Source of the DNA: Promethearchaeota archaeon
Lineage (GTDB): Archaea; Asgardarchaeota; Lokiarchaeia; Sigyniarchaeales; SOKP01
Length of the DNA: 64,000 nucleotides
Direction: 5' to 3'
Assembly (NCBI GenBank): GCA_016839555.1
Contig: JAEOUA010000001.1
Span: 96,001-160,000, forward strand
Part shown: positions 13,341-64,000 of the stretch, one piece after another
Layout of the letters: each line of letters opens with the position of its first letter
Position numbering within the stretch: the stretch's first letter is position 1
The notes under the pieces: generated by a model
Told to the model about the DNA's origin: nothing
Seen by the model: only the letters and a program-made list of their open reading frames with translations
Databases searched by the model: none
Position numbers and translations under genes: made by a program

Positions 13341-16300
13341 ATGAATATTAATAAGGACTTACAATTAACTTATATTTCTTCTATATATTGGAATAATGAA
13401 ATAAGTGACTTTTCTTTAATTTCTAGTTCTAAAAAAATACCCTCAGATGCGAGCTTTTTTTTAATTTGGATTCCTTTTCAAGATTCCTTGGAGTATTTAG
13501 AAGAAAATATGAAAAAGAACTTTAAGGAGATACCCATAGATAAATTAATCTCTTGTTCTATTAATTTAGTCCTTCCAACTCTAAACGATTCTGGATTTGA
13601 AAATGTATTTCATATAAGGAAAGTTTATGGAAAAATATTACCTATCTTACCAGCTAGTAAATTTCTCAATAAACTAGAAATTTTTGAGAATGAAGACACT
13701 CCTGAATCTTCCAGATTTCTGAGTGATTCAATTATAACTTGGGCTTTATTAACTAAACTTATCTTCGAATTAATAAGCAGAGGGAGCTTTGTACCTGATT
13801 TAGATAAATCATCAGAAAGATTTTATAACGGCCATTGGCGCATAATACTGGAAGATCAATATGATAATGAACGATTTCAAAAAATTTTACATAATTGTCC
13901 TTGGACAGCTCATAATCTTCCAGAAACACTAAAACTAAAAAATAATAATTCATCACCACAACAAAAGTATATTGTTGAGGAATTATGGCATCCTTCATAT
14001 ATATTTTCTGAATATATGGATACTATTGGGGATTTATTAATAAGATCAATATTAATTAAAAATAATTTTCAAACCTTTAATGAATTCTATAATACTGAAA
14101 TACTTAAGGAAAAGAATAGAGAAGTAAATTTGAACTGGGATTATAAATTTTTGAAATCTTTATTAAAAAAAGACACTCGCTTTCATATACAACAATTTCA
14201 TGAAACAATTGTACCAAAATTAATTAAGAATTGGTTAAATATTTCAAGAATATCCACCCTTCGATATGGAATTAAGATTGTTTTGCAATTAGAGTTACCC
14301 AACGACAACCAAGAAGAATGGCCGCTAAATCTTTATATTGCCTTTCAAAACTCACAAAATCTTATTTTATTAAAAGACTTTTTAAAAGGAGAGAGCAACT
14401 TAGATTTAGAAGTTATGGACTTCTTTGAAACTAAGGAAGAATTAATGGAACTAATCTTAAGAAGCTTAGGAAAAATTGTTAAGATATATCCTCCCATAAA
14501 AAAGGCTCTGGATGGTTCCTATCCGAAAGAATTGAAGCTATCATCTTCAGAAGTAATGAATTTTCTTTCTTATCCTAAAGATATATTAATCCAGAGTGGA
14601 TTTAATGTGATTTTACCGGAAGTATTTAAAAAAGGAGGAAAACAAAGATTATCGGCAATAATGATTATTTATTCAGAAGAGGAATTAGAAGAGAAGAAAA
14701 TATCAACATCTTCTATTGCTCCTATGTTTCAATTAAACGATATGTTGAATTTTCGATGGGAGGGAGAACTTGGTGATAAACAATTAGATAAAGAACAATT
14801 TGAAAAACTTATTGATGCCAATCAACCTCTCATTAATATAAAAGGAGAATGGGTCTTAGTGGATCAACAAGATCTTGAGAATATACACAAAATTTTTAAT
14901 TCATCAGCAGAAGTTGGAAACTATACTAAACCTCAAGGAACTATTAAATATCTAGATGCTCTAAAATTAGGTTTATCTAAAGAAGTAGAAGTAGGTACCA
15001 CCGGGATTAATTATAAAGTAATTATAAAGGGACATTTTGAAGAAATTATAAATAAGATAAAAACAATAGAAAAATTTGAAGAAATTTCCATACCAGCTTC
15101 ATTTAATGGAATATTAAGAGAATATCAAAAAGTAGGTTTAACATGGATGGCAAATCTATGTGAATTAAATTTTGGAATGTGCCTTGCAGATGATATGGGT
15201 CTCGGAAAGACCATTCAAGTTATTGCCTTATTGCTGCATTTTAAACAAAAATACCCCCAAAATTTAAATAGTGTTTTAATAATATGCCCTACTTCAGTTT
15301 TATATAATTGGAAAAAAGAAATAAACCGATTTGGACCAGATCTCGATGTGATTTTTCATCATGGACCAGAAAGAGTAAAAAAACTTTCAAAAATCTCTAA
15401 ATATGTCAAATCTCATCGAATAATCCTGACCACTTTTGGTACAATAAGAAATGATGTTGATTTATTAAAGACAATACAATTTACAGGAATTATCGTGGAT
15501 GAATCGCAGAATATGAAAAACTATGAAGCTCAACAAACCCAAGCCATCTATAAATTACAGAGTAACTATCGAATATGTTTGAGTGGAACACCAATAGAAA
15601 ATCGATTAATGGAATTATGGACATTATTCGAGTTTTTAAACCCAGGGCTCTTAGGAGATCAAAAAAAATTCCGAGATAATTTTGTAATTCCCATAGAAAG
15701 ATTCCATAATCAAGACGCGACAGAAAAACTTAAAAAAATCATATCACCCTTTATTCTAAGAAGAGAAAAAAGCGATAAATCCATAATAAAGGATTTGCCG
15801 GAAAAAAATGAAATGAAAATTTATATTGAGTTAAGTGAAATGCAATATGAACTTTATAAAAAATTAGTTCAGGAGACTTTAAAACAATTCGAAAGTACGC
15901 ATGCTGATAAAAAAAATAAAAGTATGTATATATTAACCCTGTTGACAAAACTGAAACAAATTTGCAATCATCCCTTCCAATTTTTACATAAATCAATTTC
16001 TATCGAAGAATTATCAGAAAATTTTGAAAACTTCGTCTCAATGTCTCCAAAATTAGAAAGACTATTAGAAATGATCGATGAAGTTATCAGTAAAGGGGAA
16101 AAAGCGATCATTTTTACTCAATTTACTCAAATGGGAAATATCCTTAAAAAAGTTTTGAGTTATAAATATAATTTTCCCATACTTTATTTTCATGGAAGTG
16201 TTACTGCCGATAAGAGAAAAGAAATAGTGGATGAATTTCAATCTGAAAAACCAAATACTCCGCCCCTCTTAATTTTGTCTCTTCGAGCAGGAGGTTTAGG

Positions 16301-16571
16301 TCTTAATTTAACAGCAGCAACTACGGTATTTCATTACGATAGATGGTGGAATCCTGCTGTAGAAAAGCAAGCAACAGATAGAGCATACCGAATCGGTCAA
16401 ACAGAAAGCGTAAATGTGTATAAATTCATTATGGCAGATACTATTGAGGAGAAAATAGATAAACTTATTGAAGAGAAAAAAGAGTTAGCTGATATGGTTA
16501 TAGCTACTGGAGAGTCATGGATTTCAGAATTAAATGACGAAAAAATTAAGGAATTAATTTCATTAGAATAA
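13341..16571 (+). CDS. SNF2-family (SSO1653-like) helicase/ATPase
   Basis: LREYQ, LADDMGLGKT, DESQ, SGTPIEN, LSLRAGGLGLNL, DRWWNP, QATDRAYRIGQ. Confidence 0.95.
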   Translation: MNINKDLQLTYISSIYWNNEISDFSLISSSKKIPSDASFFLIWIPFQDSLEYLEENMKKNFKEIPIDKLISCSINLVLPTLNDSGFENVFHIRKVYGKILPILPASKFLNKLEIFENEDTPESSRFLSDSIITWALLTKLIFELISRGSFVPDLDKSSERFYNGHWRIILEDQYDNERFQKILHNCPWTAHNLPETLKLKNNNSSPQQKYIVEELWHPSYIFSEYMDTIGDLLIRSILIKNNFQTFNEFYNTEILKEKNREVNLNWDYKFLKSLLKKDTRFHIQQFHETIVPKLIKNWLNISRISTLRYGIKIVLQLELPNDNQEEWPLNLYIAFQNSQNLILLKDFLKGESNLDLEVMDFFETKEELMELILRSLGKIVKIYPPIKKALDGSYPKELKLSSSEVMNFLSYPKDILIQSGFNVILPEVFKKGGKQRLSAIMIIYSEEELEEKKISTSSIAPMFQLNDMLNFRWEGELGDKQLDKEQFEKLIDANQPLINIKGEWVLVDQQDLENIHKIFNSSAEVGNYTKPQGTIKYLDALKLGLSKEVEVGTTGINYKVIIKGHFEEIINKIKTIEKFEEISIPASFNGILREYQKVGLTWMANLCELNFGMCLADDMGLGKTIQVIALLLHFKQKYPQNLNSVLIICPTSVLYNWKKEINRFGPDLDVIFHHGPERVKKLSKISKYVKSHRIILTTFGTIRNDVDLLKTIQFTGIIVDESQNMKNYEAQQTQAIYKLQSNYRICLSGTPIENRLMELWTLFEFLNPGLLGDQKKFRDNFVIPIERFHNQDATEKLKKIISPFILRREKSDKSIIKDLPEKNEMKIYIELSEMQYELYKKLVQETLKQFESTHADKKNKSMYILTLLTKLKQICNHPFQFLHKSISIEELSENFENFVSMSPKLERLLEMIDEVISKGEKAIIFTQFTQMGNILKKVLSYKYNFPILYFHGSVTADKRKEIVDEFQSEKPNTPPLLILSLRAGGLGLNLTAATTVFHYDRWWNPAVEKQATDRAYRIGQTESVNVYKFIMADTIEEKIDKLIEEKKELADMVIATGESWISELNDEKIKELISLE

Positions 16572-16600
16572 AAATTTCAAATTGTTAATAATTAGAAAAA

Positions 16601-17521
16601 ATGAACGAAAAAAGAGATTATAGAAAGCTATCAGATAGAAATTATTATCCTAAGATGGATAAACGAAAAAAACATGAAGAAGTAAAGCAAATTAAAGAAG
16701 ATTTAATTAATTATGCGAAAACTTCTTGGGGAAAAAAGTGGATCCATTCCATCTTAAAAATAGGTCGTCCTTATAGGATGCGTCGAGCGATGAAATATGC
16801 AGAAGATGAAGAGAGAATTAGTAATTTAGTAATAAAAAAAGGAGAAATTTTTTCATTAGTTCAAGGGACAGCTCCCACCCCATATCGAGTAAGAATTTTC
16901 TTTAAACCAATTCCTGAGAAGGCATGGCAAGAAATTGAAAAGGAGATCTCCAAAAATCTACTTAATTTAATCCATTTGTTAGAAGGTAATTTATCCGACG
17001 AAATTATTGAAATTTTTGAGAAAAAAAATTATTCTCTATTTTATGATATTTCAGAAGGATTTAATGCGAGATGTTCTTGTCCAGATCAAGCTATACCTTG
17101 TAAACATATTGCTGCTACTATACTTTATGTTTCTAGAGTTGTGGACTATAATCCATTAATTCTCTTAAAACTTAAAGGAAAAAAGAAAAAAGAATTATTG
17201 TCAGAACTAAATATCGGCAGAAATATTGCGATAGAGCCAGCTGATAAGGCATCTAATAAGCAAATGATTAGCAAGAAAACCTCATATTACTCGTTTAATG
17301 TACCTAAAATATCAACAAAAGAGATTAAGATTCAAAAATCCTTAAGGGACGATATAAAAGATATTAATTTTCAATTTAGCAAACCAGGTAAGGTTATAGA
17401 AACATTAGAAAATTTAGGCTTGCCACCGAATTTAGAAAATCCCAGAGCTTTTGCTATTGTTCTTGATAAAATTTATAGAACTATAACAACTGAAGCATAT
17501 AAAATATCACTCTCAAAATAG
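16601..17521 (+). CDS. SWIM zinc-finger protein, partner of the SNF2 ATPase
   Basis: CSCPD-x3-PCKHIAA; VQGT..TPYRV; typical adjacency to this SNF2 subfamily. Confidence 0.9.
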   Translation: MNEKRDYRKLSDRNYYPKMDKRKKHEEVKQIKEDLINYAKTSWGKKWIHSILKIGRPYRMRRAMKYAEDEERISNLVIKKGEIFSLVQGTAPTPYRVRIFFKPIPEKAWQEIEKEISKNLLNLIHLLEGNLSDEIIEIFEKKNYSLFYDISEGFNARCSCPDQAIPCKHIAATILYVSRVVDYNPLILLKLKGKKKKELLSELNIGRNIAIEPADKASNKQMISKKTSYYSFNVPKISTKEIKIQKSLRDDIKDINFQFSKPGKVIETLENLGLPPNLENPRAFAIVLDKIYRTITTEAYKISLSK

Positions 17522-17538
17522 AAAATTTCCCTAAAAAT

Positions 17539-17700
17539 TTAATAGTCTGGTCTATCCTTCTTTCTTGATTGTAAATTCTGAAGTATTTTATCCCATTTAT
17601 TTGCTAATTCCTTATTTCCAGCTTCTTTAACATATAAAATTGAGCGATTTAAGATTTTCATAATTTTTTCTTCAGAGGGCGAAAAATTTCTTTCTTCCAT
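17539..17700 (-). CDS. Small hypothetical protein (53 aa)
   Basis: Not in the ORF track. MEERNFSPSEEKIMKILNRSILYVKEAGNKELANKWDKILQNLQSRKKDRPDY fills the intergenic gap with protein-like composition. Confidence 0.55.
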   Translation of the reverse strand: MEERNFSPSEEKIMKILNRSILYVKEAGNKELANKWDKILQNLQSRKKDRPDY

Positions 17701-17847
17701 ATTATAGACTCTTCATTATCTTAAAAAAAAAGGAATATATTATTGAGATATTAGTGTTTGAATTATTTTCATATTATATATAAACTTAATAATTATGATA
17801 ATTATATTTACAATAAAGACTAAAAACTGAATTCAAGTTAAACAAAA

Positions 17848-18804
17848 ATGGAAAACTTGCTGAATAATTTATTAGAAAACTACATGGAGATCATAGATGA
17901 CATTTTAGCAGTAGCGATTGTTGATAAAAATGGATTAATAATCACTTCTAAGAAACGAGAGAGCTCAGAAAAAGGTTCAGACCAAGTGATAGGAGTGATC
18001 TCTGCGGTACTTGAAGGTTATATAGACCGCCTTAAAAAAGAATTTGATACTAAAAGCACCTTTTTTAATATTACAGAGACCGGTGACAAGAAGTTTACAT
18101 TCTGTTCAAAAGGTCAAAATACCATTTTAGCAACTATTTCAGAATTGGAAACCTCTAATACAGAATTAAGGGTTCTCTCAGAATACGTAGCAGGTCAGAT
18201 CGAATTATTAATTGAAGGGAAAGAAAACTTCACTATAAAAATACCTCATATTATCCAAGTACTCTCAAAAACACGTAGCGGAAAGTTTCCTGAGGGAGAA
18301 TATTCGGTAAAATTAATAATTACCGGTGATTCTAAAGTTGGAAAGACGAGTTTAGTAAGAAGGTTTGTAGAAAATAAGTTTAATGAGGAATATATAACAA
18401 CCATGGGAGTTGATATTACAAAACATGTAGTAAACATTGATGATCGAGCAGAAATCAATTTTATCATTTGGGACATTGGTGGACAAAATTTTACACCATA
18501 TAGAACCAAATTTTATAACGGAGCTAATTGTGCGATGATTATTATTGATAGAACCCGTCAAAAGACTTTAGAAACTATTGAAGGATGGTATAATGATATA
18601 AAAGAATCTGTAAAAAAAGAAATTCCCATTGTTATAGTTGCCAATAAAAGCGATCTTGTTAATGAAATTGAATTAGAAGAAAAAGAGATAAAGCAACAAG
18701 CGGATAAATTTGGATTTAATTTTATCATCAGCTCAGCTAAGACGGGCGAAAACGTATCTACAGCATTTTTATATATGGGCTATAAATTTTTGGAAAATTT
18801 ATAA
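17848..18804 (+). CDS. Roadblock/LC7 domain fused to a Rab/Ras-like small GTPase
   Basis: N-terminal AVAIVDKNGLIITS...VISAV roadblock pattern; G1 GDSKVGKT, G2 TMGVD, G3 WDIGGQ, G4 NKSD, G5 SAKTG. Confidence 0.9.
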   Translation: MENLLNNLLENYMEIIDDILAVAIVDKNGLIITSKKRESSEKGSDQVIGVISAVLEGYIDRLKKEFDTKSTFFNITETGDKKFTFCSKGQNTILATISELETSNTELRVLSEYVAGQIELLIEGKENFTIKIPHIIQVLSKTRSGKFPEGEYSVKLIITGDSKVGKTSLVRRFVENKFNEEYITTMGVDITKHVVNIDDRAEINFIIWDIGGQNFTPYRTKFYNGANCAMIIIDRTRQKTLETIEGWYNDIKESVKKEIPIVIVANKSDLVNEIELEEKEIKQQADKFGFNFIISSAKTGENVSTAFLYMGYKFLENL

Positions 18805-18976
18805 TCATATACTTTTTGAATTATGTATTAAAACATGTTTATTGTATTTTTTTAAAAAAATTATTTTAAAAGCGAATAATTTATTATTATTAAAAATAAG
18901 GAGGTTTGAGTTAACAATAGTACTTAAAGTACAATTCAATGATGTATTAGCGACTTGAGATGCACAAGGATACTTA

Positions 18977-19840
18977 ATGGGGTTCTCTATTAAAGAATTG
19001 ACTTATAAAAATAAATATCTGTTGTTTCTTACAGAACAAGAATATGCAGGACCTTGGTTTAGTTTTAAACTATATGGAGAAAACGTGGGAACAATTCCTG
19101 TGATCCTTAAAAATATTGAACCGACTCCAATTTATAAATTGGTAAATAGCAAGAAAGGCACATTTGTAGATCGGATAACTCTTGATTTTGATATCAAAGA
19201 ATATTTAAAAAAACTTATCAAGGATGGAAAAATTGATTCGATAGAATTTACTAGAGAAGAGCTCTATATCAGATTATTTATTGATGTATTTAATAAACCA
19301 AAAGTGCCTTACATAAACACGTTTTTTACCTTTAAAAATATATCGGATTATGATTTAATAGATTTCAATATTTATTTTGTATTCGATTTTGATATAAATG
19401 GATTAGAAGGATTTGACAATGACTTATCAGGATATGATAAAGATAATGATATTTTATACCAATATGACAACACAAATCTACATGGTGGATTTTCTCCAAT
19501 CTCTAAATCTACAAATTTCGAAACATGTCTTACAAAAGATTTTGAAATTAATGAAAATCATTTAAATTTATCAAATACTCTATATGAAGAGCCTGGAGAA
19601 ATTTTATCAGCCTTACAGATTGAATTCAAGACATTACAACCAGAACAGACTTTTCAAACAGCATTAACTGTATCAGGAGGATTAAACAAACAAGAATTAA
19701 TTGAAAATATTCGAGATGGAAAGTCAAATGCTATCAAATTTCTAAACCAAGTAAATAGAAATGTCAAATCAAAACAGAGAAATCTCCAAGAACTGGCATT
19801 TGTGTCATTAAATCTTCAAGAAGCAAAAGACTGCGATTAA
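18977..19840 (+). CDS. Hypothetical beta-rich protein
   Basis: 287-aa ORF with alternating aromatic/hydrophobic strands (YFVFDFDI, ILYQYD); no family recognised. Confidence 0.7.
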   Translation: MGFSIKELTYKNKYLLFLTEQEYAGPWFSFKLYGENVGTIPVILKNIEPTPIYKLVNSKKGTFVDRITLDFDIKEYLKKLIKDGKIDSIEFTREELYIRLFIDVFNKPKVPYINTFFTFKNISDYDLIDFNIYFVFDFDINGLEGFDNDLSGYDKDNDILYQYDNTNLHGGFSPISKSTNFETCLTKDFEINENHLNLSNTLYEEPGEILSALQIEFKTLQPEQTFQTALTVSGGLNKQELIENIRDGKSNAIKFLNQVNRNVKSKQRNLQELAFVSLNLQEAKDCD

Positions 19841-20045
19841 TAAAAATGATGATTCAAATAAAAAAAGCCAGAGATGGGCATTTATTTGATGAATACCTTG
19901 CAAGAGGAAGTATTAATCAAATCGAATTTATCTACTTTTAATTATTTTAAGCATATTTGTAAAAATTATCAAAAGTTTTATATTCTATTGAAGTTCTTAA
20001 TTTTATATAAAAAACAATATAGAAGAAAAATATTATTTTGCTTTT

Positions 20046-20972
20046 ATGGAAAATAGCGATTTAAAGGTCTTTAAACTTCTTTACTCTGGAGAAATAAAAG
20101 AACAAACGCTGGAAAGCGGAAACTTAGTAGATATTTTTTCTAATTTTAGCGTCTTAGCTTTTTATATCGGTAAAAATAAACGTTTATATACTTGGATAGG
20201 CGAAGATGCATCTAGAACCTTAAAAAATTATATTGTAAATATGCGACAAGCTTTTTCAGAAGAATATCCTTATATGAGAGTATTGAGATATATAACAGAG
20301 GATTCTATTGAATCTATGAGTGAGAATGATGAATTTTTCTCAGATATTGGGATTTTAAAAGAAAATATCGTTAAACATTTAGAATTGGAAAAAAGTAAGT
20401 ATGAAGAAGAACTTCAAACCAAAATAAATAATCTCAAAGAGGAAGCAGATTCGTTTTTTGAAAATGAAAACTTCGAAAAGGCTATTGAAATTTCAAAAAC
20501 GATAATTGAGCTTGCAAAAGAAACACAAGATAAAAAATTGATAGAGGATCAGGAAGCATTTATATCTGAAGCAGAAGCAAGAATGAAAGCAAAATTTATA
20601 TTAACAGAAATTAGAGAAGAAAGTAAAAAAATTAAAAAAAGATATTTAGAAGCAAAAAAGAATAATATACAGATTAAAGCATTATATAATTATGTTCAAA
20701 CATTTAAGAAAAATTATGAGCAATATCTTACTTTGCCTGCCTTAGAAACTATACAGAGATTAATTTTAAATGTGGAAGAACTATGGTCTGAATATTTTTC
20801 TAAAATAAAGAAACAAGACCAAATAGAAGAAGATATGGAAATAATCAATTCTCTTAGGGAAAAAGGTAAGGATAAATTGAATAAGGGATCTTTATCGGAA
20901 GCTCATAAATATTTTGAAAAAATAACGGTTAAAATTAATAAACTTTTAAAAAAGACTAGTGAGAATATATGA
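20046..20972 (+). CDS. Gelsolin-like domain plus TPR/MIT-like helical protein
   Basis: N-terminal VLAFY...RLYTWIGEDAS...ENDEFF gelsolin-like pattern; helical unit KINNLKEEADSFFENENFEKAIEISKTIIELA. Confidence 0.65.
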   Translation: MENSDLKVFKLLYSGEIKEQTLESGNLVDIFSNFSVLAFYIGKNKRLYTWIGEDASRTLKNYIVNMRQAFSEEYPYMRVLRYITEDSIESMSENDEFFSDIGILKENIVKHLELEKSKYEEELQTKINNLKEEADSFFENENFEKAIEISKTIIELAKETQDKKLIEDQEAFISEAEARMKAKFILTEIREESKKIKKRYLEAKKNNIQIKALYNYVQTFKKNYEQYLTLPALETIQRLILNVEELWSEYFSKIKKQDQIEEDMEIINSLREKGKDKLNKGSLSEAHKYFEKITVKINKLLKKTSENI

Positions 20973-23449
20973 GTGAAAAATTGGATGATATTTTTAAGGA
21001 ATTTGAAGATGTCTTTTTAGGTAGAGAAAATGAGATAAAAAAATTCCTCTTAAAATATAAAAAAGATGCCTTTATAAAGCAAGATGTTATCAATGTAGAA
21101 AGAATTGATGCCACGTATAGGCTTGAGACCTCAGGATATAGAAAGAATTTATCTATGTGGCAAAATTTTTATAAAAATCTTATTGTTAGCGTATGCATGG
21201 AAATTAAGCGCAAACAAAGACGTTTTGATTACAAATTCTTTTTTACTGAAGAAAAACTTGATTCAGAACTATTAGAAAAAGTAGAAGAGATTATTAAAGA
21301 AGTAAATAAATTAAAAGCTAGGGCAAAATTTTCAGAAGCGTTAGAGAAAATAGATTTAATAGAAGAAATGGTAGCTGATACACAAGATAAATATTTTAAT
21401 GCACAATTGAGGAATCTACGCCAAGAAATTAAAATTGCTGAAGAAGATTATAATAAAAAATTACAAAGAATAAAAAACTTAGAGTCTGCATTAGAAGAAG
21501 AGAGGCAAAAGCAAAATTATGATAAGGCATTAGATATTTGTGAAGAAATTGTAATCATTGCAGAATCAATCAATCAAAAACAAGTACAAAAAAAATATGA
21601 AGATCTAATTCAAGAATTAACTAGAGAAAAAATTAAAGGACAAATTAATAAATTAAATGAAAAAGCTGAGGAAGCCAGAAAATCCAAAAAGTTCAAAATA
21701 GCAATAGATTTATATAATCAAATTATAAAGCTAGCAGAGTCTGCTGGATTAACTGAAGAAAAGGAGAAATATACTAAAAAAATAGAAGAGACTAATCGTG
21801 AACTAATTAAAAAAGAAATTAATGAATTAGAACAAAAAGTTGATAAAAATAGAAAAGCAGGAAGACGTTTTGTTGCGATATCTAATTGTAATGAAATCAT
21901 TGAGCTTGCAGAGTCAATCAATTTAACTGAGATTAAAGAAAAAACTCTTCAAAAAATCGATGAAATTAAAAAAGAAATGGATCAAGTAAGAAAAAGAGAA
22001 GAAATTGAAAATAAAATCGCTATGTTGGAGAAGGAATTTGCAGAGAGTAAAAAAAATGAAAATTATGAAGAATCTTTAGAAATTACTTTAGAAATTATTG
22101 AATTAGCTAGTTCCATTGATGATAAAGAAACTTGGAAAAAATATACCCAAATAAAAGATGAAATAATAACAAAATTAGAAGAAAAAGAGAAGTCAAAACA
22201 ACAAGAAATTATTGAAGATAAAATAAGAGACTTAGAAGCACAAATAGAAGAAAATCGAAAATCAAATAATCTTGAAAATATTATTATACTTTCAAATACA
22301 ATAATAGAACTCAGTGATTCGATTGAAAGGGATGATATTAAAAAACAATATCAAGAATTGATAGAAAAAATCAAAAAAGAACTCGAGCAAAAGAGAAAGA
22401 AAGAACAAACTGAAGATATTAAACATAAAAAAATATCTGAGCTCCAAAAGATTATTAATGAAAGAGTCCAAAAAAAGGAAAAGGAGCAAGAAGAATTATT
22501 TAATAATGCTAAAAAATTCGAGGATATGATTCAGCTAGAGGAAAATGTCATGCTTATCATTGAGGAATATTCCGTTGATGAGATTATAGGAGATATTTCT
22601 GATGATATAAATCAGATAATAGAAAAATTAAATATTTTACTTAATGAGCATAGAGTCGAAATAAAGGAAAATATTAAAAGTGAATCGGTTTTAATCAGCG
22701 CATCAGGAGAAATTATAGAGTTAGATGATGAAATTAAAGTGGAAAAAGTGGAAGAGGAAGAAGAAACAATATTTAATGTTACATCGGGGTTTGAAAATCC
22801 ATTTGATGATATGATTGAAGAAGCAATTATTACGGATTTAATTCCATATAATTTCGCAATCAATAATGTAGAATTTAATGGAGAGGAAGTTAAAGAATTA
22901 AATAACACACTTTTATTAAAAGATGGGCTCGAAGTGAAATGGCAATTAAAAAATATTAATAAAAATGAACGCGTTGATATTAAATATGATTTAAGAAAGA
23001 GAATATCACGAACAATTCTATTTTTACTCGAAGATCAAGTTAAAATTTTTAAAACTCATTCAAAAATTAAAGAGTCTATACCAAAAGTAGAGGGTCTTTA
23101 CGATGCTAAAATGCCTTTTAAGAATTCCTATGATAAAGCTTTAAATGGATTAGTAATAGAAGATATTATTCCACTTTATTATGTTCATACTATACGAGAA
23201 CCCACTGTATATTTACCTCAAGAGAACGAAACAAATCAAGGAAGTATGGTAAAATGGAATATCGGAAAATTAGAACCTACTAAAATTAAGTACCATTATA
23301 AATTATTAGAGTTGTATAAATTAGAAGAATTAAAAGCTTTAATATATAAATTAGATAAAGAAGGGTTTGCAGCTCTTAAAAAAGATGAAATAATTGAATC
23401 ACTAAAAAAATATAATGAAATCACCAAGATATTGAAAGACTTTATCTAA
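20969..23449 (+). CDS. Large helical-repeat protein with two C-terminal beta-sandwich-like domains
   Basis: About six ~60-aa three-helix repeats; C-terminal I-x-D-x-IP...V-x-W-x-[LI] motif occurs twice. ATGA overlap with the upstream gene. Confidence 0.7.
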   Translation: MSEKLDDIFKEFEDVFLGRENEIKKFLLKYKKDAFIKQDVINVERIDATYRLETSGYRKNLSMWQNFYKNLIVSVCMEIKRKQRRFDYKFFFTEEKLDSELLEKVEEIIKEVNKLKARAKFSEALEKIDLIEEMVADTQDKYFNAQLRNLRQEIKIAEEDYNKKLQRIKNLESALEEERQKQNYDKALDICEEIVIIAESINQKQVQKKYEDLIQELTREKIKGQINKLNEKAEEARKSKKFKIAIDLYNQIIKLAESAGLTEEKEKYTKKIEETNRELIKKEINELEQKVDKNRKAGRRFVAISNCNEIIELAESINLTEIKEKTLQKIDEIKKEMDQVRKREEIENKIAMLEKEFAESKKNENYEESLEITLEIIELASSIDDKETWKKYTQIKDEIITKLEEKEKSKQQEIIEDKIRDLEAQIEENRKSNNLENIIILSNTIIELSDSIERDDIKKQYQELIEKIKKELEQKRKKEQTEDIKHKKISELQKIINERVQKKEKEQEELFNNAKKFEDMIQLEENVMLIIEEYSVDEIIGDISDDINQIIEKLNILLNEHRVEIKENIKSESVLISASGEIIELDDEIKVEKVEEEEETIFNVTSGFENPFDDMIEEAIITDLIPYNFAINNVEFNGEEVKELNNTLLLKDGLEVKWQLKNINKNERVDIKYDLRKRISRTILFLLEDQVKIFKTHSKIKESIPKVEGLYDAKMPFKNSYDKALNGLVIEDIIPLYYVHTIREPTVYLPQENETNQGSMVKWNIGKLEPTKIKYHYKLLELYKLEELKALIYKLDKEGFAALKKDEIIESLKKYNEITKILKDFI
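21272..22410 (+). repeat. Six degenerate ~58-69 aa protein repeats
   Basis: Consensus IxxLExxxExxRKxxNYxxAIxIxxEIIELAESIxxxExxxKYxxxIxEI, visible in the translation. Confidence 0.7.
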
Positions 23450-23485
23450 GATAGAAACCTTGCTTTGTTTAAATATTCTCTATTT

Positions 23486-23962
23486 TTATCCTCTTAAAGT
23501 AGCTATGATTGTTTTTTCATCCAATAAAAAATCTATCGCATCATTAGGATTGGTAAAAATGACATCCGCATTCATTAAACTTTTCCCACTTGCTCCCTCA
23601 CTTCCTATTATTAGAATTCCCAAAGCTGCATTTTTAAGCATTAACATGTCATTATTGCCATTACCAATTGCTATTGTATTTTCTTTTCCCAATTTTAATA
23701 ATTCTTTATTTTTTGCTTCTGCATCTGTTTGATTTCCTGTATTTATTCTAATATATTTAGAATCTAATTTCTTAGCCAATTCATTTAAATTACCACGCGT
23801 ATCTGATGATATCAGAAAAATATTATAGTGCCGTTTTAAAGCTCTAAATTTTTCTATTAATTTATTTGAGATTTTTCCATTAAATTGTAGGGTGCCATTG
23901 ATATCAAAAATGATGTTGCTTATTTCAAGTAAACCAAAATGAGGAATATTAACTTTCTTCAT
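23486..23962 (-). CDS. HAD hydrolase (soluble P-type ATPase-like)
   Basis: FDINGTL, SSDTRG, AIGNGNND...AALG, EGAS. Confidence 0.85.
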   Translation of the reverse strand: MKKVNIPHFGLLEISNIIFDINGTLQFNGKISNKLIEKFRALKRHYNIFLISSDTRGNLNELAKKLDSKYIRINTGNQTDAEAKNKELLKLGKENTIAIGNGNNDMLMLKNAALGILIIGSEGASGKSLMNADVIFTNPNDAIDFLLDEKTIIATLRG

Positions 23963-60378: not shown

Positions 60379-61176
60379 ATGCAGGTATTTAAGATAAATG
60401 ACGATGGAACAACCACAGAACTAAAATCTAAAGGTCCAGTAAAAGATATTCTAGAAGAATCAGAATGTTATGTGCTTGTTGCAGACGGAATAAAAAAAGT
60501 ATATCTCTGGAAAGGACAGCAAAGTAGCGTTCGAAAAAAATTCATTGGTGCAAAAAGATCTCAGGAAATACGAGGACAAGTTGGCATGCATTACGCAGTC
60601 ACACCATTAGATCAAGGGGATGAGGATCTTGAATTTATTAAGCTTATTGGAGGCAAAACTACCGAAGGAATAGCTAAGGGTATTGATGAAAGCGACTTGG
60701 ATGAAAGGGCTACTGCTCCTATATCGAAATCTTCCTCTCCGCCAAGGATTAGCAGCTCCGGCGGAAATCAAGGACCTTTATACAGAGGAGCAGGATCTAT
60801 GCAAACCTTCACTGCAGATCAAACACAAATAGATTTTGAGAAAATTATGGAAAAATTAGACGAATCTGAATTGCCTCCTGGATTTGAAAGAGAATTAATT
60901 ATCATAGGCAACCATGCATATTCCGTAGTTGAAAAGGTCCAAACATTTTTAGGCAAAAAGCAAGTGGAAAAAGTGATGGAAAAAGTAGGAACTATCCCAG
61001 AGGGAATATTTTTTGCAAAGGATTATACACCAAGAATTTTCTCTGAAAATGGAAAAATAATGGCAATTGAATTTTTAAAACAAGTAGGGGGCGGTGCTAA
61101 TCCTTCGAAACAAATAAATAGAAAAAAAACGCTTGATGATCAAATAAAAAGCCAACTCATCAAGAAAAAGAAATAA
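60379..61176 (+). CDS. Asgard gelsolin-domain protein with additional C-terminal domain
   Basis: L-x-ESECYVLV...KVYLWKG-x2-SSVRKKF-x-GA...DQGDED-x-EF gelsolin fold; S/P/G-rich linker; second domain LPPGFERELIIIG. Confidence 0.85.
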   Translation: MQVFKINDDGTTTELKSKGPVKDILEESECYVLVADGIKKVYLWKGQQSSVRKKFIGAKRSQEIRGQVGMHYAVTPLDQGDEDLEFIKLIGGKTTEGIAKGIDESDLDERATAPISKSSSPPRISSSGGNQGPLYRGAGSMQTFTADQTQIDFEKIMEKLDESELPPGFERELIIIGNHAYSVVEKVQTFLGKKQVEKVMEKVGTIPEGIFFAKDYTPRIFSENGKIMAIEFLKQVGGGANPSKQINRKKTLDDQIKSQLIKKKK

Positions 61177-63076: not shown

Positions 63077-64000
63077 ATGTCCTATGGAACTTCTAAATAT
63101 AGTAGAGCGCTTATTTTAGATATCGGAAGCAGTAATTTTCGAATGGGATGGGCGGGCTCAGATGACCCTGAAATTATAGAGTCTTTTATCTATGCTCGGA
63201 CTACAAATTTTCAATTTCAATCGGAATTTATTGATGGCTTTAAAGAAATTTTTTCTAATAAAATAGAGAATGATTATCTATTCGGAAGCGAAGCTTTAAG
63301 TTATCAAGGGATTTTAAAGCTAGAAGATCTTAACAGAGAAGAGAATCCAAATATTTTTATTAAATATTTTCTTCATCAATATCAGAAGCTAAACATTCCT
63401 TCTGAATTCCGATTTAAACAACATATAATTTTAATCGATCCATTTTTAATGAGTGATTTAGAAAAAGACAAATATAAAAAAATATTTTTTGAGCGTTTAA
63501 AATTTCCTTCATTATTATTTCTTCCTTCTGATATGGCAATACTCACGACGTTAAATAAAGTCGATGGAGTTATTGTCAATATAGGTGCAAAAAATACTTA
63601 TATATCTTCAGTTTATCATGGATTTACCGATTCAATGGCAAAAGATAGTGTTCCTATTGGTGGTCGAGAATTAACTAACTATTTTTTAAATATGATTTTG
63701 ACGGGGAAAGGAGCTAATAAAAATTTCTTTTTTGATTTTTGGATGGCTAAAAAAATAAAAGAAGAAATGGCATTATGTGTTTTACATCCAAAACAAGAAA
63801 GAAATAAAATTCAAGAAGATTTTATTGAATACGATAAAATAATACATTTACCAAATAAATATAGTTTTAAAATTAATTTTGAAAGGTTTATGTTAGTTGA
63901 ACCTCTATTTAACCCCCAATTAATCCATATTGACCATAGAAATATTATTGAAAGTATTGTAAAGACCGTTAAATTTTGGGAAAGAGAACAGAGACCTGAA
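63077..64000 (+). CDS. Actin-related protein (divergent), 3'-truncated by window edge
   Basis: Not in the ORF track. Open for 308 codons: ALILDIGSSNFRMGWAG..DP (phosphate-1), FGSEA, GVIVNIG..NT (phosphate-2), IGGRELTNY, KKIKEE, ERFMLVEPLFNP. Confidence 0.9.
   Translation, partial: MSYGTSKYSRALILDIGSSNFRMGWAGSDDPEIIESFIYARTTNFQFQSEFIDGFKEIFSNKIENDYLFGSEALSYQGILKLEDLNREENPNIFIKYFLHQYQKLNIPSEFRFKQHIILIDPFLMSDLEKDKYKKIFFERLKFPSLLFLPSDMAILTTLNKVDGVIVNIGAKNTYISSVYHGFTDSMAKDSVPIGGRELTNYFLNMILTGKGANKNFFFDFWMAKKIKEEMALCVLHPKQERNKIQEDFIEYDKIIHLPNKYSFKINFERFMLVEPLFNPQLIHIDHRNIIESIVKTVKFWEREQRPE

Follow-up and report, generated by a model that had tools for sequence, protein, structure and literature searches.

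The question raised by this locus is whether four consecutive genes, read by a first-pass annotation as possibly one undescribed Asgard system coupling a small GTPase to actin regulation, form one system or more than one. The genes (g1 to g4) lie at 17848-23449 on the + strand of the window, by which is meant the whole stretch of 64,000 nucleotides (nt) that was analysed, from a Promethearchaeota archaeon (GenBank assembly GCA_016839555.1, contig JAEOUA010000001.1, positions 96,001 to 160,000; G000:C4:96001-160000 in our numbering). The genome, G000, comprises 3.7 Mb in 12 contigs (GC about 26–32%) and derives from a marine-sediment metagenome (three DNA runs, one marine-sediment study); the sources of its homologues label them Promethearchaeota or Lokiarchaeota archaeon. 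All four open reading frames (ORFs) were recovered as the first-pass annotation had drawn them, with g1 at 17848-18804 (318 residues), g2 at 18977-19840 (287 residues as annotated), g3 at 20046-20972 (308 residues), and g4 at 20969-23449 (826 residues). Judged by comparison across genomes, the block probably consists of two independent, separately conserved two-gene modules, g1 with g2 (module A) and g3 with g4 (module B), which came to adjoin each other in a single lineage within a Lokiarchaeial genus, and nothing in the sequences compared links module A functionally to module B.

Gene order separates the two pairs. A g1 orthologue lies directly ahead of g2, on the same strand, in all 20 g2 neighbourhoods examined (10 genera, 2 families), and this order holds at g2 identities down to 23–26% and g1 identities of 41–45%, loosening only in more distant families. 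Upstream of g1, the window carries an SNF2 helicase and SWIM zinc-finger pair (13341-17521, + strand), and the same pair precedes g1 in 8 of 20 other genomes (G005, G006, G002, G020, G028, G014, G008, G024), so SNF2-SWIM-g1-g2 can be taken as an old neighbourhood; the ancestral arrangement reads SNF2-SWIM-g1-g2-HAD. Three genomes alone, G000, G005 and G001, all of the same genus, have the g3-g4 pair separating g2 from the HAD gene, and the HAD gene directly follows g2, with neither g3 nor g4 between, in G006 (same genus), G014 and G024, the last two of which carry gelsolin-head/head-2 pairs on other contigs. The first-pass annotation had named loss of gene order as evidence against its four-gene set; since the order was found in part of one genus only, with the pairs conserved separately, the set was rejected as a single GTPase-to-actin system.

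The second gene, g2, is very probably a selenoprotein gene in which UGA is read as selenocysteine (Sec), and which was wrongly called in the annotation. The gene is present on the + strand at 18977-19840 as called, with a start that is too late, so that the model is truncated, and both its selenoprotein nature and the element in its 3′ untranslated region (UTR) had been missed. The revised coding sequence, very probably the real one, spans 18917-19840 (307 codons, ATA start, in-frame UGA). Its inferred ATA start (18917) lies 60 nt upstream of the annotated ATG (18977) and 11 nt behind a Shine-Dalgarno sequence (AAGGAGGT, 18898-18905, + strand), with a GGAGG-type motif at the equivalent position in nearly all of the 21 g2 loci compared. 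The putative Sec codon (TGA, 18956-18958, + strand) is codon 14, and is the only interruption of a 20-codon open frame leading into the annotated ATG. An in-frame TGA occupies this codon in 18 of the 21 loci, with conserved residues on both sides, and the remaining three, which are the most distant, have Cys in a CxxC motif at the Sec position together with an ordinary ATG at codon -20, counted from the annotated start; an ATG at codon -20 is also present in one TGA-bearing locus (L039). In two loci (L033 and L034), which carry a CITU motif, Phe stands where the annotation would place its starting Met, and the short gene model is thereby inapplicable to both.

The g2 protein is highly conserved (more than 400 clusters; 68–93% identity among the best 120 listed). 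No family assignment was returned by Pfam or NCBIfam, and a g2 profile found no relative among PDB sequences; the best PDB match, NSA2 (E 0.011), covered only 57 residues and was judged to be a chance hit. An acidic motif is invariant in the alignment (DFDING...DND...YQYD in full; DFDING at 19385-19402, + strand), as is a C-terminal Cys (19832-19834, + strand), and every g2 homologue, down to 25% identity, has a Cys within 0–3 residues of its C-terminal end. This terminal Cys might resolve the Sec near the N-terminus, or else be a lipidation or metal site; the partner g1 has no C-terminal Cys. A distant g2 homologue in G038 (L044, G038:C22, 2044-4215, - strand) forms the N-terminal domain of a protein of about 700 residues with a CKWU (TGA) motif, fused to a C-terminal vWA domain (PF00092, 32 bits; the ORF is partly X owing to masked bases). 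This fusion suggests that the g2 domain may work in protein-protein assemblies.

In the 3′ UTR of g2, a type II eSECIS-like element (SECIS, selenocysteine insertion sequence) of conserved structure was delimited at about 19846-19895 (+ strand). The fold comprises an AUGA core (19849-19852), an upper stem of 8–9 bp (19854-19862 with 19881-19889), and a 3′ UGA (19890-19892), together with an A-rich bulge and a variable ministem. The element was found in all 18 TGA-bearing g2 loci and was absent from all three Cys-bearing loci, and the 8-bp consensus helix shows one compensatory A-U to U-A change. Directly 3′ of the core (19896-19920 and aligned loci), a short GC-rich hairpin is present in most loci (e.g. 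CCUUGCAAGAGG), and in several g2 loci flanks of the type ATCC...GGATTT beyond the core could form a lower helix. The gaps of about 170–200 bp reported among the first three genes hold as annotated (172 nt for g1-g2, 205 nt for g2-g3), with the g1-g2 spacing falling to 112 nt after revision of the g2 start, and about 50 of the 205 nt taken up by the SECIS-like element; the gaps flanking g2 are thus partly explained by its start lying further upstream and by the SECIS in its 3′ UTR. Runs of T5 and T7 are located downstream of g1.

Components for decoding were searched for in the same genome. SepSecS was found at G000:C5:400755-401912 (E 3.3e-116), adjoined by a tRNA-Sec-like gene (G000:C5:400755-402331 for the two, - strand, L040) that scores 45.3 bits against an Rfam cut-off of 47 bits, whose anticodon, in the loop CUUCAAA, is UCA, and whose variable arm is long. 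The Pfam SelB-wing_2 model gave no match, a result that is uninformative, the model being bacteria-specific and failing to match the M. jannaschii control as well.

The first gene was confirmed as a roadblock-GTPase, with an N-terminal roadblock/LC7 domain (residues 1-140, 17848-18267, + strand) and a Rab-like G domain (residues ~150-318). The G domain matches Pfam Ras (E 2.2e-38, residues 155-310), and its top PDB match is a Thorarchaeota Rab (7ezb, 2.5e-30), followed by Rab1, Sec4 and Rab8. All of the G1–G5 motifs are intact (GDSKVGKT, residues 160-167; YITTMG; DIGGQ, residues 209-213; NKSD, residues 266-269; SAK, residues 296-298), including the catalytic Gln, and no prenylation Cys was found in the last 10 residues (the protein ends in ...YKFLENL). 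The N-terminal domain encoded in the window reaches 17.6 bits against Pfam Robl_LC7 (PF03259), under the 23-bit cut-off; the N-domains of orthologues match Robl_LC7 in 19 of 19 cases at E <= 0.1 (best 2.4e-8), and a profile built from them reaches the Robl_LC7 protein 7f8m_A (E 3.9e-5). A LAMTOR3/MP1-type family was also matched by 15 of the 19 orthologue N-domains.

The third gene encodes an N-terminal head of about 105 residues (residues 1-~105, 20046-20360, + strand) followed by a helical half resembling tetratricopeptide repeats (TPRs; residues ~113-308, weak TPR matches). Close relatives of g3 as a whole form only 8 clusters, and a search of 1.8 billion proteins gave 62 representatives of the family to which its head belongs. 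When a 45-sequence profile of the head was compared with the PDB, ProGel (7c2f_B) was matched with an E-value of 5.9e-4 and Lokiarchaeota 2DGel with one of 0.16. An AlphaFold2 (AF2) model of the head (predicted local distance difference test score, pLDDT, 82.8; predicted template modelling score, pTM, 0.75) was searched with Foldseek, where all listed matches at E <= 1e-3 were gelsolin-family domains, with ProGel first (E 5.9e-6). Comparison by VIA placed villin D6 (Z 11.2; root-mean-square deviation, rmsd, 3.1; 101 aligned), adseverin (within Z 11.1-11.2) and ProGel (Z 11.1; rmsd 2.0 Å over all 88 ProGel residues) at the top of 110 chains with Z >= 8. The predicted model thus confirms a gelsolin fold for the head, with a long and a short helix enclosing a central beta sheet, and the earlier description of this N-domain as gelsolin-like held in both profile and fold. 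Within the head, W50 is invariant over the wider family and G52 nearly so, both being invariant in close orthologues. W50-x-G52 aligns with L-W-R-G of ProGel, the alignment takes in the L-Y-x-W-x-G strand and, towards the C-terminus, an E-P-x-x-F region, and the Asp position of the gelsolin 'DWG' motif (Akil et al. 2020) is Tyr40 in the g3 family.

By sequence, the presumed ligand of the g3 head, actin, is encoded in the same genome, which has several actin-family genes (best E 4e-134). Two further features lie near the end of the window: a weak Pfam Gelsolin match (60451-60609, + strand; G000:C4:156451-156609) in a 273-residue frame, at 17.6 bits and below cut-off, and an actin-family gene from about 63101 (+ strand) to beyond the window end at 64000, in a 398-residue frame (PF00022, 1e-17 and 3e-24). 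Together they form a possible gelsolin-actin neighbourhood, about 40 kb away from the g1-g4 block.

The fourth gene was correctly described as an 826-residue repeat scaffold, and a C-terminal module was additionally separated out here. The protein is the B-type partner and consists of a conserved N-terminus termed head-2 (residues 1-110, 20969-21298), 5–6 tandem TPR-like repeats of about 58–66 residues each (residues 173-482, 21485-22414), and a C-module of about 300 residues (residues ~527-826, 22547-23446, all on the + strand) with beta domains, a terminal helical hairpin and two D[LI]IP...W...Y motifs (22835 and 23162). Searches of the g3 and g4 sequences against Pfam and NCBIfam gave nothing significant. 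The helical-repeat profile reached TPR proteins weakly (SGT2, 2.9e-4; PP5, 1.7e-3), and TPR_2 gave a weak match in 6 of 45 members (best 0.0014), the period of about 58–66 residues being longer than the canonical 34-residue TPR. A gelsolin-head hidden Markov model (HMM) found nothing in g4, for which reason its N-terminus was rejected as a degenerate gelsolin domain. Over the best 120 of the 156 proteins retrieved (lengths 472 to 1260 residues), the C-module shows 44–100% identity, and its AF2 model (pLDDT 74.6) has a well-defined first beta domain. When an adaptor mu-homology or Ig-like beta-sandwich was considered for the C-module, the best structural match of a beta domain was AP-4 mu4 (4mdr_A; Z 6.4, rmsd 3.6, 86 aligned, rank 46), and the best Foldseek hit had an E-value of 8e-3 and a TM-score of about 0.15.

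That the last two genes belong together, as had been proposed, was borne out by several comparisons. They overlap by 4 nt (ATGA) and have a repeat in common, which was detected by BLASTP for one unit (E 1e-5) and by hhalign between a g3 profile and a gelsolin-free g4-type profile (94.4% probability, E 9.3e-8, 153 columns), the helical half of g3 spanning about 2.5 repeat units of the latter. The g3 head and the g4 C-module occur in a single chain in 62 retrieved proteins, typically of about 766 residues and in the order gelsolin head, repeats, C-module. Split by head, 61 C-module proteins have a gelsolin head and 67 do not, and in a C-module tree the sequences cluster by head type (0 of 500 label shuffles cluster as well), with g4 placed inside the head-2 clade (Shimodaira–Hasegawa-like approximate likelihood ratio test support 97). 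By sequence, the scaffold family falls into three classes (gelsolin head, head-2, and headless). Because g4 has its own conserved head-2 and falls in a separate C-module clade, it was assigned as a distinct B-type paralogue, and the alternative that it split off from a single-chain protein, as the C-terminal half of the latter, was rejected on the same grounds. Tandems in which a gelsolin-headed gene is directly followed by a head-2 gene were found at 8 loci in 4 genera (measured junctions of -4, 10 and 16 nt), and in other genera (G021, G034, G020 and G049) a single-chain gene with a gelsolin head precedes a second gene that encodes a C-module. With this comparative evidence, which is good, g3 and g4 probably share one function, in what is probably one complex.

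Other arrangements of the same parts were recorded. In one genus (G019:C30, G007:C9, G026:C65, G032:C80), a gelsolin-headed gene of 330–361 residues is followed by a helical partner of 382–388 residues, both without a C-module, so the pair persists without that module. A second head-2 paralogue was located in the genome of the window (G000:C7:25805-26131, - strand; 933-residue frame, 63% identity over the head), and, as the g3 query gave no other gelsolin-headed match in G000, none precedes this copy. Lone head-2 copies similar to it occur in G005, G003 and G001.

The separation into two modules was weighed against the four-gene reading, in which the roadblock-GTPase would act through g2 on the gelsolin/scaffold pair, coupling signalling to actin and membrane remodelling. 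It can point to three genomes of one genus in which the genes are adjacent and co-directional (G000, G005, G001), and to a Lokiactin co-immunoprecipitation in L. ossiferum that enriched gelsolin homologues and an ARF GTPase (PMC13716822), so that GTPase-actin cross-talk in Asgard archaea is plausible in general; but G006, G014 and G024 have g1-g2-HAD without g3 or g4, most genomes carry their gelsolin-head/partner pairs on other contigs, no fusion or co-occurrence ties g1 or g2 to g3 or g4, T5 and T7 runs follow g1, and a SECIS lies between g2 and g3, which together leave one four-gene system very improbable. For g2, an even less probable alternative is that translation does end at the upstream TGA, in which case the conserved frame ahead of the annotated start and the hairpin in the 3′ UTR would be a leader peptide or a regulatory element. 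Sec in g2 is a prediction from sequence, and the start is a non-canonical ATA. Rfam at permissive thresholds gave no SECIS match over 17500-23700, ARAGORN called no tRNA in L040, and covariation support for the g2 SECIS is thin, at one compensatory pair, because the helix is almost invariant; with these must be listed, as weighing against our readings, that the 20 neighbourhoods were picked from 47 matches, that related genomes are not independent samples, that one family (f4; G041, G043) has no g1 orthologue near g2, and that in G038 the g1 orthologue lies 1.8 kb from the g2 homologue on the divergent strand, with HypD in between. A true stop is opposed by amino-acid conservation that runs across the TGA, by Cys at that codon in homologues lacking the 3′ element, by the loci in which the annotated start has no Met (L033, L034) or in which codon -20 is ATG (L039 and the three Cys forms), by the fit of the 3′ element to the published Asgard type II eSECIS-like model, and by the presence in the genome of SepSecS and of a tRNA whose anticodon is UCA. 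Decoding of the TGA as Sec, in a gene that belongs to module A only, was retained.

For module B, the nature of the head and the relation of the two genes were each weighed. The head might not bind actin at all, with g3 and g4 together forming a TPR-type adaptor or chaperone-like scaffold for another client, a reading that seems somewhat unlikely. Pfam Gelsolin (PF00626) misses g3 (E <= 0.1) and the g3 head in the genome-wide search (E <= 1), while detecting true gelsolins elsewhere in this genome, and it matches none of the 45 members of the head family, of which three give a weak match to MPK1_gelsolin_C (0.018). Over the wider head family only W50 is invariant, with few other positions nearly so, the gelsolin fold also occurs in Sec23a, which was aligned by Akil et al. 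2020 (PMC7444086) as lacking shown actin binding, so that the head could be a generic protein-binding domain in the manner of the Sec23/24 gelsolin-like domain, and the helical part resembles the TPR co-chaperone domains of SGT2 and PP5 (E 3e-4 to 2e-3). Against this stand the best profile match and one of three tied best structural matches, both to ProGel, solved bound to actin, and a layout equal to that of 1DGelX, which severs actin filaments in vitro (PMC7444086). At the other end of the pair, the second beta domain of the g4 C-module is poorly modelled (pLDDT below 55), a fold search with the C-module gave no convincing structural relative, and the C-module tree is a quick maximum-likelihood version, not a careful search. 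Finally, g3 and g4 could be tandem paralogues that act independently, their adjacency and overlap stemming from tandem duplication and compact packing, which we regard as unlikely. Their common repeats make them partly paralogous, the second head-2 gene (C7:25805-26131) has no gelsolin-headed match elsewhere in the genome with this query, and headless and single-chain forms exist; yet the gelsolin-headed gene comes first over 4 genera with tight junctions, despite divergence to about 45–50% identity, all 10 of the short gelsolin-headed ORFs checked (302–361 residues) have a co-directional helical partner directly downstream, and the single chains uniting the two end domains speak, by Rosetta-stone logic, for one function. 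A g3-g4 partnership with a gelsolin-fold head that may bind actin was therefore carried forward.

A mechanism can be proposed for each module separately. In module A, g1 is followed in all 20 neighbourhoods by g2, a predicted selenoprotein of about 307 residues whose UGA would be decoded via a eukaryote-like SECIS in the 3′ UTR, and g2 would serve as a dedicated partner, effector or regulator, of the roadblock-Rab-like GTPase. The (C)xxU centre and the C-terminal Cys make redox-active or metal-binding chemistry at the Sec site probable. More speculatively, and on balance rather doubtfully, g1 and g2 could form an ancient order-wide switch, in which redox state would be sensed by the selenol/thiol centre ((C)xxU with the C-terminal Cys) or passed between that centre and the small GTPase in either direction. 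In module B, which would be the two-gene form of a Lokiarchaeia-specific family, g3 and g4 would be translated together and held to each other by their related helical repeats, the gelsolin head of g3 is predicted from sequence and model to bind Lokiactin, and the C-module of g4 may bind some further target. If these steps hold, module B as a whole would act as an actin-linked scaffold.

Roadblock-GTPases, Asgard gelsolins and Asgard SECIS elements are already known kinds; what is added here is the order-wide g1-g2 pairing, the three-class scaffold family, the fusion evidence for g3-g4, and the rejection of the four-gene model. Asgard archaea have dozens of small GTPases and several gelsolins, almost none with a known partner, and two testable partnerships can now be named, a roadblock-Rab GTPase with a selenoprotein across an order, and a gelsolin-headed protein with a scaffold partner, for which single-chain fusions exist. 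If the redox-switch reading is true, g2 would be the first selenoprotein known to serve a GTPase of the Ras superfamily as its dedicated partner, and an Asgard GTPase would have a partner that can be named. The g2 gene model, truncated in public databases, is corrected, and genomic context, in the form of a fixed GTPase neighbour, is added to a selenoprotein family outside those named in the sections of Huang et al. 2024 (PMC11227280) available here. Since the 'GTPase-to-actin locus' is a lineage-specific juxtaposition, effort on the four-gene model is not warranted.

Each module was compared with the closest known systems. As described in the available sections of Huang et al. 2024 (PMC11227280), UGA in Asgard archaea is decoded via a 3′ UTR eSECIS-like element with an AUGA_GA core, an upper stem, an A-rich bulge and a ministem, the type II form occurring in most selD genes, and the Sec machinery is of archaeal/eukaryotic type. 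The predicted g2 element agrees with the type II model given in those sections. The g2 protein itself falls outside the five widespread Asgard selenoprotein families named there (SelD, FrhA/VhuU, HdrA, FrhD/VhuD and Prx-like; two further families exist), and its Sec differs from that of the selenoproteins described there in being encoded by codon 14, ahead of the start annotated in databases and within a (C)xxU motif. The search in that work, according to the same sections, used known selenoprotein families only, so g2 would have been undetectable in it.

Tran et al. 2024 (PMC10933270) catalogued architectures with an N-terminal roadblock and a small GTPase in MK-D1 and solved the Thor-Rab structure (7ezb). 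The g1 protein has the same roadblock-then-small-GTPase order as these Asgard RB-GTPases, with Thor-Rab as the best match of its G domain. In MK-D1, GTPase genes generally lie outside operons with regulators, and genome layout seldom helps to match partners (PMC10933270), whereas g1 has a fixed downstream neighbour over 10 genera, and this neighbour, g2, is a predicted selenoprotein and not a roadblock, longin or TRAPP protein. In MglA-MglB and Rag-Ragulator, a roadblock platform regulates a small GTPase, and g1 likewise pairs a roadblock with a Ras-superfamily G domain. Relative to Rag, the roadblock of g1 is fused N-terminally, which is the reverse order, and the G domain is Rab-like and not MglA- or Rag-like.

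For module B, the nearest relative of the g3 head is ProGel of Thorarchaeota (PDB 7c2f chain B, in complex with rabbit actin), which is its best profile match and among its three tied best structural matches. ProGel differs in being a stand-alone protein of 94 residues, with 18–24% identity to the head, and in having a conserved Asp before the W-x-G strand (F-I-D), where the g3 family has Tyr. In having a helical region behind its gelsolin domain, g3 resembles in layout Thorarchaeota 1DGelX (Akil et al. 2020, PMC7444086), which has one N-terminal gelsolin/cofilin-type domain and a helical 'domain X' predicted to be a coiled coil, and which nucleates as well as severs actin filaments in vitro without calcium control. 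As differences, the g3 head has diverged beyond the reach of Pfam Gelsolin, the helical half of g3 is formed by a TPR-like repeat common to the predicted translationally coupled partner gene, and the g3-head family, in contrast to 1DGelX, also includes a single chain of about 766 residues with a beta-rich C-module.

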